Source of the DNA: an uncultured delta proteobacterium
GTDB lineage: Bacteria; Desulfobacterota; Binatia; UBA9968
Direction of reading: 5' to 3'
DNA length: 64,000 nt
NCBI GenBank assembly: GCA_963745835.1
Contig: CAVUZH010000003.1
Span: 288,001 to 352,000 of the forward strand
Part shown: piece by piece, positions 17,178-25,815 of the stretch
Layout: each line of letters starts with the position of its first letter
How positions within the stretch are numbered: position 1 is the stretch's first letter
Translations under genes and position numbers: made by a program
Notes under the pieces: generated by a model
Database searches by the model: none
Seen by the model: only the letters and a program-made list of their open reading frames with translations
Told to the model about the DNA's origin: nothing

Positions 17178-18186
17178 GTGCAGAAACCATCATTCAACTC
17201 CTGGTACCTAGCGCTTAGCTCTGCCTTCTTCTTGTCTGTATTCGCCGGCCACAGCGGCGCGCAGATCAAATCCGAAAAGCTTCACGTAGGCTATAGCGCC
17301 CAGGCAGGTTCTCTGGCGCCAATATGGATTACCAAGGAAGCGGGCATTTTTAAAAAGCATGGTCTGGATGTTGAACTGCTCTTCATCCCCGGTGGCCCTA
17401 CCGCTGCAGCGGCGCTGATGTCGGGCGAGGTGCCGATTACAGTCGTCGGCGGGCCGGCAGTGGTTAGCAGTAATCTCGCTGGATCCGATCTGGTCATGAT
17501 CGCCGGCATCGTGAACACCTTCGCTTTTCAGATCATTTCCGTCAAAACGATTACCTCGTATCAGCAGCTAAAAGGTAAGCGCCTTGGCGTGAACCGCTTT
17601 GGCGCTTCGCCGGACGTCGCTGCGCGCTTTGCTTTGAAGCACATGGGCATCGATTTGAGGGACATAACCATCCTGCAGTTGGGCGAGCAATCGACCAGGC
17701 TCACGGCGATGATGGCTGGACAACTGGAAGCGGCGGTCTTTTTGCCGCCGATCACGACCATGGCGCAGAAGCAGGGCATGAACGTGCTCCTGGATCTGGC
17801 GGAATTAGGAGCGGAGTTCCAGATTACCGGATTGGGCAGCAGCCAGAGATTTCTAACGCAACAAAGGCCCACGGCTATCAAATTTATGCGGGCTTTCGTG
17901 GAGGGAATTCATTACTTCAAGACGCACAAGCCCGAAAGCATGAAAACGATTGCCAAGTACATGAAGGTCAGTGACATGGAAGCAGTCAGCGCAACCTACG
18001 ATTATTTCGCTCCCAAGAGTTGTGCCGCAGAAACCTTACCCATCTCTCAAAGGAATCAAAGCACTTATCGATCTCGCTGCCGTGGAGAAACCTGAGCTGA
18101 GGAATGTTTCTCCCGACCGTTTTGTGAACACAACGATTTTAAAAGAAGTGGACGACAGCGGATTCATCGATCGTTTGTATCGGTAA
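17178..18186 (+). CDS. ABC substrate-binding protein, NMT1/SsuA-like (frameshift near 18015)
   Basis: ORF 17178-18095 joins ORF 17971-18186 ('PYPSLKG..DSGFIDRLYR'). Confidence 0.85.
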
Positions 18187-19527: not shown

Positions 19528-19866
19528 TTACTTCCGAGTGGATCCAGGAGAAAAGTATTCGGCGCGACTGACGGCGACGTCTGAGACGAACATCACTCCG
19601 GTGTAGCGGTCGAACAGAGGTTTCAAGCCGGCCAAAATCGGCTCGACTTTCTCAGGCGCGACGACTGACATTAACATGACGATGCTGTCTATCTCGTTGA
19701 ACATCGGATGGGCCGTGTGAAAACCGTGATGCCCTTTTCCGGAAATGTTGTGGATGATGGTATAGCCGGTGGCCTTGTTGTCGAGCAAGTCGGTTGCGAA
19801 TTTCAAGTGCTCTCCCTGGATGACAATCCTGATTTCCTTCATCGGATGAAGCGTGAGATTGCTCAT
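19528..19866 (-). CDS. PII-like (SbtB-type) signal protein of the DAB operon
   Basis: 112 aa with PII-fold pattern 'TGYTII..SGKG..G' and 'GVMFVSDV'; directly downstream of dabA. Confidence 0.8.
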   Translation of the reverse strand: MSNLTLHPMKEIRIVIQGEHLKFATDLLDNKATGYTIIHNISGKGHHGFHTAHPMFNEIDSIVMLMSVVAPEKVEPILAGLKPLFDRYTGVMFVSDVAVSRAEYFSPGSTRK

Positions 19867-19878
19867 GCTGATCTCCTT

Positions 19879-22800
19879 TCAAACGAATCTCTGGACACGA
19901 GATGAACACTTTGGATTCACAGCCTGCCACCCTTCTTTGGGAACGTACCGGTAAGCTAGCTGCGCTTCAGGCTCGATGGCGATGAGATACAGCCATTGGT
20001 TATCGTACAGTCGCTGCAAATGGCGTTGGTTGCTGATGATTTTATCGATTCTTTCCCTGGGCGCCTCCACCAGGGTCACGAGCCGCATCGGCTCATGGTA
20101 GGGCCGCATTCCATTCATGACCGTCTGCCAGGCCAGGCCGGTGCGCAGGTCGCTCTGGGGACCGGACATAATCCCAAAGCGGCCGACTACGTTGTGGTAG
20201 ATTTTGCTACCGCTGCCGTAGCCCGCCGGATCCACTACGGAAAAGTAATGCTCCATATTGATCCATTGTCCGACGATCTGCGGTCCGGCCATCACGACCT
20301 CGAGCAAGCGGCCGTCCGGATCTTCACGGTAATCGTAAGAATGCAGAAAGGCCCGGGCGTCAAGATTGATGCCGCGGGTCAAAGCGCGGCGCCCAATGAT
20401 AAATGCGGCATTGCCGGATAGCCCCCATTCGGGACGGACCTGGCTCCAGTCGGCGCTTCGGCGGTGTACCGTGCGCCGGGCTTTCGAAGCGCCCAGGCTT
20501 ACCTTGATCTCGGGAAATCTAGCGCATCGCTCTTGGCTGTTGCGCGCTCCCGCCGATTCAAGATCGCGGACTAGTTGGAGCAGATCCTTGCGGTGAGTAG
20601 GGGGGAGATCTTCCAGATCGAAGAGATCGATGTCATCGGTGGTGGTATTGTGTTGTCCGGCGATGAAGTAGGTGTCCTGCGGAATGGCAATGCCGTTCTT
20701 GGCGAGCTGCTCCCGCACCAGGGGTTTGTTCGCCATGATCGCCAGCACCCTCGCGTTGGGCTTGCCCGGGTTGCCGCCACAGGCGCCGCAATCGAGAGCC
20801 GCTTCGAAGGGGTTGTTCTCGGAGGTGCTGCCATGGCCGCAAAAAAGCACGAGACGGGCAAAGTTCCGCGTCAGCCCCATCATTCTTAGCGCGGTTTCCA
20901 CGGTGAAGACTTGCTCGCTGAGAGTGAACCCGGTCCGGGTGATACGCTCCATACGAGCAAATGACGCGCCCGGGTTGATGCCGTGGTTTCGCCTGAGATC
21001 TTCAACAAATGCCGCTTCTTCTTCGCGGGAAAGCGCGGTGGAGCGCGCCTGCGGCGATGGTTCCCCCGCGCTCTGTCCGTCGAGCGCCCGCCGACGCAAA
21101 AACTCCAAGCGTTCCAGCGATAGGTTCAGATGGCGCTCACCGAAATTTTCCTGCAGCGCGCGGCGGGTAATTGCGCGCTGTTCCGCCGCCAACATTTCCT
21201 CTACTTCTTCGCGTGACAGTTTGTCTACAGTCAAAGTCGTCGCTACCGGCGGGACCATCTTGCGCCGAAGCCAGCTCATGACGTTTCTATACCAGGTTGG
21301 CCAAAGGGTCTTGCCGACAAAGGGCAGGCTGTAAAACCAACCCAGCGACTCCACCATGACATACGGAGTGACGACATTTTCCTTAAGATCGTAGAGCAGG
21401 GTGTGTCCGGTTTCGAGAAGTTTTTCCCGGTGCCGGCGTCTGAATAAATAGTGGCCTTGATAGGTCCGGGGAATCTCGCGGACCAAATTTTTAGTCTTCA
21501 TGATTACCGGAAACTGATCGGTTTCATGATGGCTGCCGAGGCCCTGGTAGCGGATGAAGACGGCGAAAAAACCTGCGAAGCCGAAGGTCTCGTAATCGCC
21601 AATCGCTTCCAAGTGACGCCGGATCGACTCCGAACGGACGTCGATGCAAAACACCGCCTGCGCCTGATGACGTACTTTTATTTCACCCGGCAATTCGCTT
21701 TGCTCCCCGGCTGGCGCAGATGGGCTTCGACCGGAAGCGACTTGGCTGGCTTGACCGAGGTTTACGGGGAGCTTGCCCAGCAGTTCTTCCTGGTATCCCG
21801 CCTCGAACGCCCTGAGCCATATGGGCCCATGGTCCGCTTCAGGAAATCCATCGATCCACTCGAGCAGTGTCAGCAGGTTGCCGGGCTCGCTTTGCATCAG
21901 AATACCGGAATCATGTCCGAGAGCTTGCGCAAGTGCGAACAAGCGCCAGGCGCCGACGAGAGCTGCCGGGCTATGCTCCTGTGCTTGGCCGAAATATTTC
22001 GGAGATAAGTTGTCGCGCCGCTGCATCTCAGTCAATATTGCATCGATGTTGCCGTCGATGCCGAGCGATTGACGACAGGCTTTTTGCACCAACTCACGTT
22101 CATACCAAACTCGCACCGCAAGATACTGCGCCAGATCGACGGGATAGGCGAGCTGCCATTCATATTCACTTTGATCGGCGCGCCATTTGATGAAGCCCGC
22201 CCATCCCGATAGAGCCACGAGGTGAAGCGAGAGATAATCCTGCCGGGCATCGACCGGGATACCAAGGGTCGCTAAACTTTCGAGCAGCGCATCTTCCGGC
22301 TGCTCCGGCAATCGGCCCAGCTTCTCGCGACTGTTCTCGATTGCTGCGGGAGACCATTCCTGTTGAGCGAGAAATCTCCAGGCGGCGTAGAAACCCTTCT
22401 CACGCCGCGGCATAGGCCAGGTGGCATGACCTTCGTCCAAAAACGCCTCGCACCATTTAACCAATTCACGGTTAATTTGCTCGCCGATTTGGGTGCCCAG
22501 GGTGCGATCGCACCAGCTGGCCAGCATCAGAGTTCGACCGAGATCTCCCTGCTCTGCGGTAGCCCGCCAGCTCTGCGGCGGTTTCGCAGCCGACGTCAGA
22601 TGATTTGCCAGCGATTTGATCGCGTTGCGCTCGGGATGGCGCTCGAGCAGAGTGGCGAAACTGTCATCAGGAGGAGGAGAAAGATCTTGCAGCATGCAGG
22701 CGCGAAGCACGGCCCCGAGAGTCACGTCATGAGCGCCTAATTGGACGTGCCTGTTTTCTGCGCGCGCTTTTAGCGCGGCATCGAGTTGATCGGGCAGAAT

Positions 22801-23049
22801 CCGGCCCGAGCGGAAATAGTCGCGAAAAACTTCAACGGACAAATAACCCTTGCCGTCGAGCAATCGCTCAGCCCGAGAAATGGCCTCTTCAAAATGGAGA
22901 TACTCCAGGCCGTGTAGCGGATTGTGGTGCACGAATGTGCGCATGGGCCAGTAATCGGCAATGACCTCGCTCGCCAGTAGGATCAACGCTCGGAGCTCAC
23001 TCCGCTGGGATTCGCTGTACTGTGTTGCTGCCATTTGTGCCGTAGTCAT
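19879..23049 (-). CDS. dabA: Probable inorganic carbon transporter subunit DabA (DUF2309/UPF0753, beta-carbonic-anhydrase-like)
   Basis: 'WPMRTFVHHNPLHGLE', zinc ligands 'FCIDVRSE', 'CGHGS' and 'CGACGG', 'DWSQVRPEWGL', 'FLHSYD', 'HEPMRL'; ATGA overlap with dabB. Confidence 0.93.
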   Translation of the reverse strand: MTTAQMAATQYSESQRSELRALILLASEVIADYWPMRTFVHHNPLHGLEYLHFEEAISRAERLLDGKGYLSVEVFRDYFRSGRILPDQLDAALKARAENRHVQLGAHDVTLGAVLRACMLQDLSPPPDDSFATLLERHPERNAIKSLANHLTSAAKPPQSWRATAEQGDLGRTLMLASWCDRTLGTQIGEQINRELVKWCEAFLDEGHATWPMPRREKGFYAAWRFLAQQEWSPAAIENSREKLGRLPEQPEDALLESLATLGIPVDARQDYLSLHLVALSGWAGFIKWRADQSEYEWQLAYPVDLAQYLAVRVWYERELVQKACRQSLGIDGNIDAILTEMQRRDNLSPKYFGQAQEHSPAALVGAWRLFALAQALGHDSGILMQSEPGNLLTLLEWIDGFPEADHGPIWLRAFEAGYQEELLGKLPVNLGQASQVASGRSPSAPAGEQSELPGEIKVRHQAQAVFCIDVRSESIRRHLEAIGDYETFGFAGFFAVFIRYQGLGSHHETDQFPVIMKTKNLVREIPRTYQGHYLFRRRHREKLLETGHTLLYDLKENVVTPYVMVESLGWFYSLPFVGKTLWPTWYRNVMSWLRRKMVPPVATTLTVDKLSREEVEEMLAAEQRAITRRALQENFGERHLNLSLERLEFLRRRALDGQSAGEPSPQARSTALSREEEAAFVEDLRRNHGINPGASFARMERITRTGFTLSEQVFTVETALRMMGLTRNFARLVLFCGHGSTSENNPFEAALDCGACGGNPGKPNARVLAIMANKPLVREQLAKNGIAIPQDTYFIAGQHNTTTDDIDLFDLEDLPPTHRKDLLQLVRDLESAGARNSQERCARFPEIKVSLGASKARRTVHRRSADWSQVRPEWGLSGNAAFIIGRRALTRGINLDARAFLHSYDYREDPDGRLLEVVMAGPQIVGQWINMEHYFSVVDPAGYGSGSKIYHNVVGRFGIMSGPQSDLRTGLAWQTVMNGMRPYHEPMRLVTLVEAPRERIDKIISNQRHLQRLYDNQWLYLIAIEPEAQLAYRYVPKEGWQAVNPKCSSRVQRFV

Positions 23050-25620
23050 CTCCATGGCATGCGAGTGCCGTGCGCCAGTGGAACGGTTTCGAACCAATCA
23101 AGCGGCACGGCGCCGAGGGCGATTAGAATCAGCAGCAGAAGCGCGAACACCGCAACCTCACTTGTTTGGAAGTCGTTATAGCGAATATCGGAGCGGTGCG
23201 GACCAAACAGAAGCCGCTGCATCATTCTGAACAAATACCACGATGCCAAGAACCAGGTGAATAGAATCACCATCAGTCCCCACGAAACCGTAGCCGAAGC
23301 CTGCAGCAACATCGCCACATATGCGGAAAAAACGCCAAACGGAAGCAGCCCTAAGGCCGCCATAACCAACAAAGAAAACACGGTAGCAAAGCGGGGCATC
23401 GGCCCTGCCAAACCGTGCATGCCGTCTAAAGTCAAATCGCCGTACCGTCCACGTACGCGTTCCCAAGCAAGGAGCAGTCCGGCGGAAATCAATATTGTCG
23501 TGACCAAGTAGATGATTGCTTGAACAGCCAGATTTCCTGTAATGCCGAGACTCCACCACAGAGCTGAAAAGAAAGCTACGCCGGCGTAGGCCACAAGTTG
23601 CGGAACTCTCGTTTGACCCAAAGCTTTGAGCGATCCATACACCGCGCCGAATAAGGCCAGCACGCTTACGGCACGAAGAGTCTCGACCGGAAGATCCGGC
23701 ATCAACTGAGCGATCCCGAACACTCCCGCCGCCGGCAGCAGCATGGCGAGGACTACTGCTTGATATCCTGGCCAGCGCGTGAGCGCAGCCACGTAGATTC
23801 CGTGCAGGGGAAAGAGTGGTAGCAGAATAGCAATCAAGATGAATAACCCGATTTCCGCCGGCTGACCCGGCAGCCGCGCGCCGAAGGCTAGTGCCGAGCC
23901 AATGGCGATCAAAGCTGCCAGATACGGGAAGACTCTGCTTGCATTCAGACGATCGACCTCACCTCTAAAGAGTTGGGTGAATCTGATGGCTAGCGCATCG
24001 AGGTAGAGTCGATTCATCAAAAGCAGGTAAATACGAACCCGTAAGTGATTCACCCATTCCGGCATGCCGATCGTTCGCCCATGGCTCTCTGCATAAATCA
24101 GAATCCAGCCAAGAATGATGACCAAGGCAAACGCCGATACCAAGACATCGAACAGTAGGACCGGTAAAGCGCCGGCTTGAAAGTGGGCAGCTACCTGGCC
24201 CGGCGCCGGAAATAAGAAGTGTGTGAAGCTTTCCGCTGCCAGCAGATAGGTGATGACCACGAGGAAGAGTGTAAAGAGCATGCTCATAGCCACCTTCCAA
24301 GTAGCGACCGCCCGCAGGCGATATAGTGTCAGGATGGCTTGGGAAGAGGTGGCCCAGCCGAAGAAGAGAAAGATCGTCGTTCCCTGTGAATCTCTCAATG
24401 GAATGCGCAGGATGCCATGAGCCGCTAGCAGGATGATCAACGGAAGGATCAGGGTTGTAAGAAATCCGGTGAGCCAGGTGAGAGTCGAAAATTGACTTCT
24501 CTCGATTCCCTCACTCTTGGGAGGCAGTCGGGGTTCTTGGCGAGCGGCATGAATCACGTAGCCGCAATTTAAAAATATCGTGCCTTTAAACAGGCCATGG
24601 GCGATTAAGTGAAAGATTGCAAGGCCGTAGGCGCCCAGACCGCATTCCATAATCATAAAGCCCATCTGTCCAATGGTTGAATAGCCCAAGCGTCTTCTTG
24701 ATGTCGTTCTGAACCAGCATCATGGAAGAACCCAGCAGAGTAGTAACCATGCCGACGGCGAAGACCAGATGGAGCGTTGGCGGATTCAAATCGTAGAGCG
24801 GCGCCAGACGGGTCAAGAGAAAACCGCCTGCGTTGATAATTCCGGCGTGCAGCAGGGCATGGACCGGTGTCGGCGCGTACAGAGAATCGGGCAGCCACAT
24901 GTGCAATGGAAACTGCGCCGACTTGGTCATGGCGCCGATGAAAATCAATAGAGTGACGGCGGTGTCGGCGCGCATCTCGAAGCTACCGCCGGGCCCGAGA
25001 AAGAGCGAGCTTTGGACCTCGGCAGCGCGCAAAAACAGCTGCTGAAAATCCAAGCTGCCATACGTGCGATACGCCAGCACGATTGCGGCGAGAAAGGCAA
25101 CGTCGCCGATGCGCTGCATAACAAATGTTCTAAAGGCGCCCCGGACTGTTAGTGAGTGGCTGTAGTTGTGAGACAGGAGCGGCACGAGCCAACTCAGCAG
25201 TTGCCAGAATATGAAGAGCATTAGTAGATTGGCGCTCGACACCATGCCGAACAGAACGAAACCGGTAAAAGCCAGTAAGCTGTGAAAGCGAGTATATCCG
25301 CGCTCCTGTTGCATGTAGCGGATCGAAAATAGATGGATCAGGATACTGATTGCGGCGATATGCACGAGCATCACCGACGAAAGCCGATCAATGTGCAAAC
25401 CGAATTGTAAGATCCCGTCGTGCCAGGATGATAAATGGATGGTTTGCGGTCCGCGAGTGGTTACTTCGTAAAGGACCAGCAGCGAGAGCGCGAAAGAAAT
25501 CACTTCCGCCGCCACGCCGATCCGGCCAGCCTTAGGGCCGAGCGTGCGTCCCAGAAGGCCGATGATCAATCCCGCCGCCAACGGCAAAAGGAGTATCAAC
25601 GCAGGATAATAAGCGAGCAT
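23046..25620 (-). CDS. dabB: DabB (NuoL/MrpA-like proton-conducting subunit) with an extra C-terminal NuoM/N-like membrane domain; +1 frameshift at ~24686
   Basis: 'KSAQFPLHMWLPD..APTPVHALLHAG'; removing one G from a GGG run restores 'DIKKTLGYSTIGQMG' and joins ORFs 24586-25620 and 23046-24689. Confidence 0.88.
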
Positions 25621-25705
25621 GATCTTGGTCTAGAACCTGTCAATGCATAATATGACGATAAAAGATCGTCGTCTCGTTTGAGAAATAGCTGCCGCGCCGC
25701 AAGCC

Positions 25706-25735
25706 AAAAAAAGCCGGCCCTTTGAAGAGCCGGCT
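25706..25735 (-). terminator. Intrinsic terminator in the dabB 5' leader (attenuator)
   Basis: AGCCGGCUCU-UCAA-AGGGCCGGCU-UUUUUU, ending about 85 nt upstream of the dabB start and in the same orientation. Confidence 0.75.
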
Positions 25736-25780
25736 AGTCCATACCGATCCCAACTGCCTGCTTCAGGCTATCGGTAGAAT
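25730..25780 (-). ncRNA. Candidate cis-regulatory leader RNA (riboswitch-like aptamer) upstream of dabBA
   Basis: UACCGAU-A-GCCUG-AAG-CAGGC-AGUUGGG-AUCGGUA-UGGAC: nested stems P1 (7 bp) and P2 (5 bp) abutting the terminator. Confidence 0.5.
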
Positions 25781-25786
25781 TTTTTT

Positions 25787-25815
25787 ACCATAGCGTATGA
25801 CTTTAGGGCAGTAAA
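25787..25815 (-). promoter_or_regulatory. Putative sigma70 promoter of the dab leader
   Basis: TTTACT-N17-TATGGT on the minus strand, placing the TSS just before the P1 stem. Confidence 0.5.

Follow-up and report, generated by a model that had tools for sequence, protein, structure and literature searches.

How non-photosynthetic bacteria regulate DAB-type CO2 pumps has been little studied. The 64,000-nt stretch of DNA analyzed here (the window), from the genome of an uncultured Binatia bacterium designated G000, presents the question in a concrete form. On the minus strand of the window, the genes of a DAB CO2/bicarbonate pump are preceded by a short stretch in which the original prediction placed a promoter, two small hairpins and a terminator, taken together as a candidate riboswitch or attenuator. 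Is this leader a real element, what is its structure, and what might operate it?

The Leader of the dab Operon

The promoter-like site, the hairpins, the terminator and the ~85-nt gap before dabB are all present in the sequence where they had been placed (Table 1). The two predicted helices are called here the local P1 and local P2, as distinct from the P1 and P2 of the conserved fold described below. The operon runs dabB, dabA, P-II-like gene, and a divergent thioredoxin-reductase-like gene lies upstream of the leader. The closest dabB records carry the titles of Candidatus Binatia or ‘Deltaproteobacteria’ MAGs.

Table 1. Positions of the leader, its parts, the dab operon and the second leader of G000 (window coordinates unless a contig or locus is named).
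Feature	Position	Strand	Basis or remark
Promoter-like site: TTTACT (25815-25810), 17 nt, TATGGT (25792-25787)	25787-25815	-	read from sequence
Leader 5′ part: local P1 and local P2, with the family's conserved strings GAUAGCCUGAAG and GGGAUCGGU	25737-25786	-	sequence; R1 and R2 matches
Local P1: UACCGAU paired with AUCGGUA	25776-25770 and 25748-25742	-	single A between its 5′ strand and local P2
Local P2: GCCUG, AAG, CAGGC	25768-25764 and 25760-25756	-	
AGUUGGG, 3′ of local P2	25755-25749	-	
UGGAC, after local P1	25741-25737	-	
Intrinsic terminator T1: AGCCGGCUC, UUCAAA, GGGCCGGCU, U-run	25706-25735	-	consensus scan
T1 arms	25735-25727 and 25720-25712	-	
Six further U after the T1 arms	25711-25706	-	
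Leader stretch from T1 to the dabB start	25621-25705	-	conserved within the genus
dabB (NuoL-like), two overlapping ORFs (24586-25620 and 23046-24689), ATG at 25620	23046-25620	-	PF00662 + PF00361
dabA	19879-23097	-	PF10070, E 6e-274
P-II-like gene, last of the operon	19528-19866	-	PF00543, E 2e-19
Second leader in G000, match	G000:C3:594667-594759		R2, 36.7 bits; 280 kb from the first leader
Second leader in G000, locus	G000:C3:594559-594800 (= L196:6560-6800)	-	outside the window

The predicted 10-bp terminator with a U-tract, T1, was recovered by a consensus scan with 10 pairs (7 of them G-C), a 4-nt loop and T7. It is a G+C-rich hairpin directly before a U-run, which is the mark of an intrinsic (Rho-independent) terminator. 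The promoter-like site matches 8 of 12 consensus positions by hand count and thus has no entry in the scan, which was cut at 9. At the homologous place, relatives have CTTGAC(A/T), a spacer of 17-18 nt and TTAAGA or TTTAAT; the G000 lineage has lost TTGACA, and both its hexamers lie ~4-5 nt further upstream than in relatives. Between the T1 U-run and the dabB ATG, 85 nt away, G000 has only GACGAU-CUUUU-AUCGUC, without a U-run, and GCGGC-AGCU is left over from the 5′ arm of a second terminator found in relatives. A leader peptide was rejected, as the stretch holds just ORFs of 2-7 codons that overlap the -10 hexamer or the linker.

The two dabB ORFs (344 and 547 aa) overlap at 24586-24689 of the minus strand. 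The dabB of L010 is 95% identical to that of G000 over 2575 nt with 2 gap positions, and its ORF (814 aa) crosses the G000 break point but is broken elsewhere. The split in G000 probably reflects assembly indels, with a recent frameshift as the alternative. An intact product would have ~858 aa, unusually long for a DabB. About 1.4 kb beyond the P-II gene, with no ORF longer than 93 aa in between, lies a gene for an NMT1-type solute-binding protein (17178-18095, plus strand).

As a lone sequence, the G000 element is within chance, since about one terminator as good as T1 is expected (1.0 ± 1.1 when the 800-nt region is shuffled), the promoter misses the cut, and a fold of 101 nt, at z = -1.9, is equaled by 8 of 200 shuffles. 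It is conservation that shows the element to be real. The 101-nt fold differs from the predicted one. In an 81-nt frame (25786-25706), the local P1, local P2 and terminator form the MFE structure (-31.6 kcal/mol), and the same fold is the MFE in L010 and L103. In the MFE of the G000 nascent RNA, GAUCGGU pairs instead with the terminator arm GCCGG.CUC (-18.0).

Conservation Upstream of dabB

A BLAST search with the intergenic region found the element in 6 of 40 relatives. R1, a covariance model built from 12 copies with G000 among its training rows, matches G000 at 25679-25788 (109 bits, E 5e-21), its sole match in the 7.3-Mb genome. Among 90 genomes of the bacterial family, R1 matches 13; 12 of these matches are genuine, each before dabB, and the remaining one, in G085 (30 bits), is spurious, lying within an ORF and lacking a terminator. 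DabA is encoded by 24 of the 90 genomes, 11 with the R1 element and 13 without it.

The metagenome dabB loci extend this picture. The element is present at 50 of 80 such loci (49 by R1 at E < 0.01, and L171 by a second model, R2, at 71 bits), in 38 distinct sequences, in each case shortly before dabB and on its strand. Two MAGs titled Nitrospirae also have canonical copies before dabB (72-75 bits). In the G000 window, R2 gives a significant match at 25707-25764 with 31.7 bits (E 2e-6 to 6e-5), versus 66-80 bits for canonical dabB copies.

In G000 the element lies directly 5′ of dabB on the same strand, and relatives share this layout, with 57-104 nt between T1 and the start codon. In several relatives, inspection by eye showed no second conserved promoter between terminator and start codon, nor space or signals for one. 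The predicted leader with a terminator before the DAB operon is conserved, and attenuation, as originally proposed, is therefore its natural reading.

Four relatives (L013, L014, L015 and L020) have a full second terminator hairpin and U-run between T1 and dabB. This hairpin, GCCAGCA-AGAA-UCC-GCGA-GGA-GAAA-UGCUGGC followed by U7, combines a symmetric internal loop of purines with a tip of the GNRA type. The mpsC-linked leaders described below carry a homologous hairpin as their second terminator; upstream of dabB, G000 has lost the hairpin.

The Conserved Rod and Its Remodeling

The fold common to the leader family is a rod, GAU-[P1 ~9 bp]-AG-[P2]-end loop-[P2′]-(A/G)G-[P1′]-A, with the terminator 1-2 nt on. 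P1 and P2 enclose a 2 × 2 purine loop, 5′-AG/5′-(A/G)G, and one P1 position is conserved as a purine-purine mismatch (no pair in 40 of 59 rows). RNAalifold recovered the terminator alone from the first 12 sequences; the rod emerged once more distant metagenome copies were added. In alignment A3 (MAFFT, 18 copies), 87.9% of cells are paired, versus 25-47% when the strands are slid, and 8 pairs have changed on both sides, a number as high in 0-2 of 500 shuffles. Alignment A4, comprising 64 R2 matches and fitted to model R2, has 88.1% of cells paired (21-43% slid). All 15 hairpin pairs have changed on both sides there, with 254 double-change cells versus 82 ± 13 in shuffles, none of 500 being as high.

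The terminator, in turn, is near-invariant in sequence family-wide, and 59-63 of 64 rows keep its first three pairs (G-C, C-G, C-G). Few bases of the rod are invariant and nothing in it points to tertiary contacts, which counts against the RNA-sensor model discussed below. End loops differ both in length and in sequence (GAAA, CCC, UGUCACC and others), and the bases that are conserved belong to the internal loops.

G000 does not have the family's P1 and P2 around a 2 × 2 purine loop. CAUCC in the 5′ strand of P2 has become CAGGC in G000 and its nearest relatives, and an AAG is missing upstream, so that GAUCGGU now pairs with ACCGAUC, forming the local P1, and GCCUG pairs with CAGGC, forming the local P2. 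The family P1 is reduced in G000 to UAGCC/GG(A)CUA, the family P2 keeps 3 of 5 pairs by eye, and the R2 alignment of G000 deletes most of the hairpin. The family P2 is broken in L009, L010, L102-L104 and L012 as well; L011, from the same genus as G000, keeps the family fold and scores 53.6 bits with R2. The G000 copy is a remodeled variant of the family, and the hairpins first noticed are a local re-pairing of the same conserved bases.

These local hairpins, then, exist in the sequence and form the MFE in the 81-nt frame, but they are not the conserved structure and lack significant covariation. Their pairs are 93% formed in 8 sequences of the lineage, but 135 of 500 shuffles do equally well; a single pair, in the local P2, has changed on both sides (in L103 and L012), and 4 of the 8 sequences have a broken local P2. 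The proposed pairing of GUUGG with CUAGC at the terminator's foot, offered as a pseudoknot or antiterminator, fails: its fifth pair is found in G000 alone among the 8, and 191 of 500 shuffles are as good.

Three other pairings were considered and set aside. A long-range helix past the terminator, 5′ GCCGAAGAU:AUCUUCGGC, can be drawn by eye in some relatives, and L118 has compensating changes in it; distant copies and the second leader lack it. A pairing between the leader and the start of dabB is seen by eye in the genus of G000 only and is absent in other groups. A kissing contact between CCUGAAG and the terminator loop is, by eye, not kept in L009 or L011.

The Wider Family

The second leader in G000 is better preserved than the first, with a rod that has a 5′-GG/5′-AG loop and a terminator. 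A second hairpin and U-run follow, and then AGGAGG, a strong Shine-Dalgarno sequence. The leader begins where the genome's single mpsC (PF10057) ends, at the stop codon, and precedes the gene for an ABC permease (BPD_transp_1, TauC/SsuC/NrtB-like, below family cut-offs). Some 1.1 kb beyond the permease, again with no ORF longer than 93 aa in between, lies a gene with a T6SS Tle1-like phospholipase domain (L196:2922-4604, minus strand).

R2 matches were found in 34 of the 90 family genomes and 13 of the 23 genera, with at most 2 copies per genome; these tallies and those for MpsC take in the unpublished genome G012, which contributes no sequence here. A phylum-wide search of 151 genomes gave just 26-32-bit matches outside the family. 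The gene downstream is a permease in 13 of the first 18 non-dab loci. In a second set of 14 loci, it is a permease in 2, purC (SAICAR synthetase) in 4 and a TctC-like binding protein in 2, and several have mpsC paralogs or a ~36-aa peptide downstream.

The order mpsC, leader, purC occurs in L232, L235, L242 and L243 (genomes G021, G080, G063 and G079) and ties the leader family to the purine step right after AIR carboxylation. The ~36-aa peptide is a conserved membrane ORF (MENWSAVFWILGSG...KGKMKKR; L213:1668-1778, with similar ORFs in L202, L234 and L238) that sits between the leader and an mpsC paralog, the TerC gene being next in L213.

A second motif, modeled separately, was found in Nitrospirales: GGC..GUA-GG-[helix]-AG-UAC-A-terminator. 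Its pairs are 85.3% formed, versus 29-48% when slid, and 7 have changed on both sides. The string GGC..GUAGGG..helix..CAGUAC-A-AGCCAAC recurs in L061, L054, L080 and L220-L229. The Nitrospirales model, R3, matches 22 of the searched dabB loci, and in five Nitrospirales genomes all 10 of its matches fall within blocks of ~18 kb, where the motif precedes dabA, SulP and mnhE (Mrp) genes; elsewhere it precedes dabB. R3 matches none of the Binatia copies, and R2 gives weak scores on the Nitrospirales motif (15-34 bits), so common descent of the two rests on shared architecture and these weak scores only.

Comparison with Known Leader RNAs

A search of the whole window against Rfam 15 gave no match at the gathering score. 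With the limit relaxed to E ≤ 10, the segment 25550-26100 gave just SorX (E 2.9), STnc240 (E 10) and BMV3_UPD-PK1, all at E 2.9-10, and at E ≤ 1 no family matched the element in 26 loci covering canonical relatives and the Nitrospirales motif. The nhaA-I and DUF1646 families, to whose scaffolds the leader had been likened, belong to Rfam 15, and neither matches at E ≤ 10. No riboswitch or leader RNA tied to DabA, DabB or DUF2309 was found in the literature, and searches on riboswitches with bicarbonate transporters, inorganic carbon or a nuoL motif gave nothing relevant among the papers listed. For MpsC/DUF2294, the letters turned up in unrelated senses only. In the accessible part of one Nitrospirales paper, guanidine riboswitches are the sole riboswitches mentioned, and a 2024 perspective, in its accessible part, calls the existence of gas-sensing riboswitches unknown (PMC11259077). 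The leader family is apparently undescribed; in kind it belongs with the known terminator-coupled leader RNAs.

The likeness to the Na+ (DUF1646) and Li+ (nhaA-I and nhaA-II) riboswitches holds at the level of architecture. In both, a small aptamer-like unit is coupled to an intrinsic terminator ahead of ion or transport genes, and tandem aptamer-terminator units occur among the Na+/Li+ riboswitches, according to the accessible text of two papers (PMC9337991, PMC9646797). As far as the accessible description goes, however, DUF1646 RNAs are built of two stems and have their conserved bases at the bottom of P1 and within the loop of P2 (PMC9337991), whereas the present leader is a single rod that has purine loops inside and a free loop at its end, and so falls outside DUF1646 as thus described. 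The genes differ too, being dabB/dabA, the NitT/TauT-type permease, purC and mpsC. The cation, pH or inorganic-carbon ligand first suggested is a candidate that fits the genes behind related leaders.

Two further systems offer parallels. The hutP-hut and pyrR-pyr operons of Bacillus have attenuators run by the proteins HutP and PyrR. There, as here, a small gene (mpsC in the present case, regulator-like) is followed by a hairpin and a terminator, and the unit repeats within a cluster; unlike HutP and PyrR, MpsC is not known to bind RNA or to have an RNA-binding fold, and the dabB copies of the leader lie away from mpsC. In the ZTP (pfl) riboswitch, a pathway intermediate reports one-carbon (folate) shortage, and purine genes are in the regulon. 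A similar logic would apply here if the signal were a purine-pathway intermediate, purC being behind the leader in 4 of 14 loci; there is no likeness to ZTP in sequence or structure and no Rfam match, and the purine link is one of gene context only.

Models for the Operation of the Leader

We tentatively favor the view that the element is a conditional transcription attenuator of dabB, dabA and the P-II gene in which the RNA itself is the sensor, much as in a riboswitch. Transcription would start at the upstream promoter and stop by default at T1, ~75 nt later, and an inducing signal would let RNA polymerase read through T1 into dabB. For switching, a ligand-stabilized rod would hold the terminator's 5′ arm; the segment GAUCGGU, re-paired, might take this role in G000. 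A candidate antiterminator helix, P0, pairs the 5′ flank with the first bases of the terminator arm; 39 of 51 nascent RNAs have it in their MFE, versus 72% of trials with shuffled flanks; the best coaxial helix averages 3.95 bp versus 3.13 bp in shuffles. Since shuffled flanks do nearly as well, the antiterminator is hypothetical. The family P2 is broken in G000, and this copy may therefore be weakened or constitutive.

RNA libraries bear on read-through, having been used as assembled contigs, which cannot show transcript ends. One contig, 100% identical to G000, crosses T1 into dabB (25593-25743). A second extends over the predicted promoter as well, to 25823; at 92% identity it is from a relative. 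A contig over the promoter could reflect DNA carry-over or an upstream start, so that the contigs are consistent with read-through without proving it. Two more, X16 and X17, cover dabB coding sequence only, and stretches without a contig carry no information.

The same attenuator might instead be worked by a protein, ligand-activated MpsC (PF10057) or another, that binds the purine-loop rod and so sets the choice between termination and read-through; we consider this somewhat unlikely. It is suggested by layout, the placement of non-dab copies almost always after mpsC being what a protein-operated attenuator would be expected to show. The end of mpsC lies within ~40-150 nt upstream of the leader in 14 of 15 loci of one set and 10 of 14 of another; in G000, the mpsC stop codon and the TTGACA of the second leader's promoter overlap. 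MpsC is encoded by 31 of the 34 genomes with an R2 match. Clusters such as that of L213 (mpsC, leader, permease, leader, 36-aa peptide, mpsC paralog, terC) resemble the pyr operon in layout. The MpsC AlphaFold model (L199:1126-1500 plus 13 homologs, alignment A7) is confident (pLDDT 91.6) and is predicted to run helix, β-hairpin, short helix, long helix, β-hairpin, short helix; its weak best Foldseek matches (H-NOX, TRAPP Bet3 and YslB) include, in H-NOX and Bet3, folds that look like those of ligand sensors.

Other observations stand against a role for MpsC. None of the Foldseek matches reaches E ≤ 0.001, TM scores are at most 0.46, no RNA-binding fold is among the top rows, and a sequence search of the PDB gave no match. 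The dabB copies of the leader do not adjoin mpsC, and the adjacency seen elsewhere may be just that of an internal attenuator within an mpsC operon. Moreover, MpsC is not detectable in 5 of the 12 dab-leader genomes (82-96% complete), nor in G256, a 2.5-Mb Nitrospirales chromosome that has the motif. These genomes argue for RNA sensing independent of MpsC.

A less likely possibility, which we regard as distinctly doubtful, is that the element of the G000 lineage is a decaying relic whose sensor is dead and whose T1 merely lowers or blocks dabBA expression. The broken P2 of the seven sequences named above (kept in L011), the loss of the second terminator module, the drop from the canonical 66-80 bits to 31.7 with R2 and the split dabB would all fit decay. 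However, the remodeled fold is common to at least seven sequences at 78-96% identity, the local P1 has 96% of its cells paired, one pair of the local P2 has changed on both sides, and neither promoter nor terminator is damaged; the break in dabB is not the same from one genome to another and resembles an assembly error.

Very unlikely is a stand-alone, trans-acting sRNA of ~70-75 nt framed by the promoter-like site and the strong T1, with dabB having its own start: T1 is unusually invariant in sequence and the chance-level Rfam matches SorX and STnc240 share a hairpin-plus-terminator shape, but dabB or one of a few other genes always follows the element immediately and in the same orientation, the sequence past T1 is conserved, no second promoter is seen, one RNA-library contig bridges T1, and a prematurely terminated leader could in any case double as an sRNA.

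Implications

If the attenuator with its own RNA sensor is pursued further, the Binatia family and the Nitrospirales motif might together represent a new riboswitch class that reports inorganic-carbon shortage and switches on CO2/bicarbonate uptake and purC, a proposal that we offer as improbable. Its ligand would be bicarbonate/CO2-linked chemistry or, more plausibly, an intermediate that accumulates when carboxylation stalls, such as the purine precursors AIR or CAIR. Its regulon would comprise DAB, SulP, the NitT/TauT-type ABC permease, DabA-Mrp clusters and purC, and the RNA would be a sensor of carbon status much as ZTP riboswitches report folate shortage.

The poorly understood MpsC gains a concrete hypothesis. 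The two motifs, one in uncultured soil Binatia and one in Nitrospirales, mark a small regulon centered on inorganic-carbon uptake, and they make testable the question of what signals CO2 or bicarbonate shortage to a cell.
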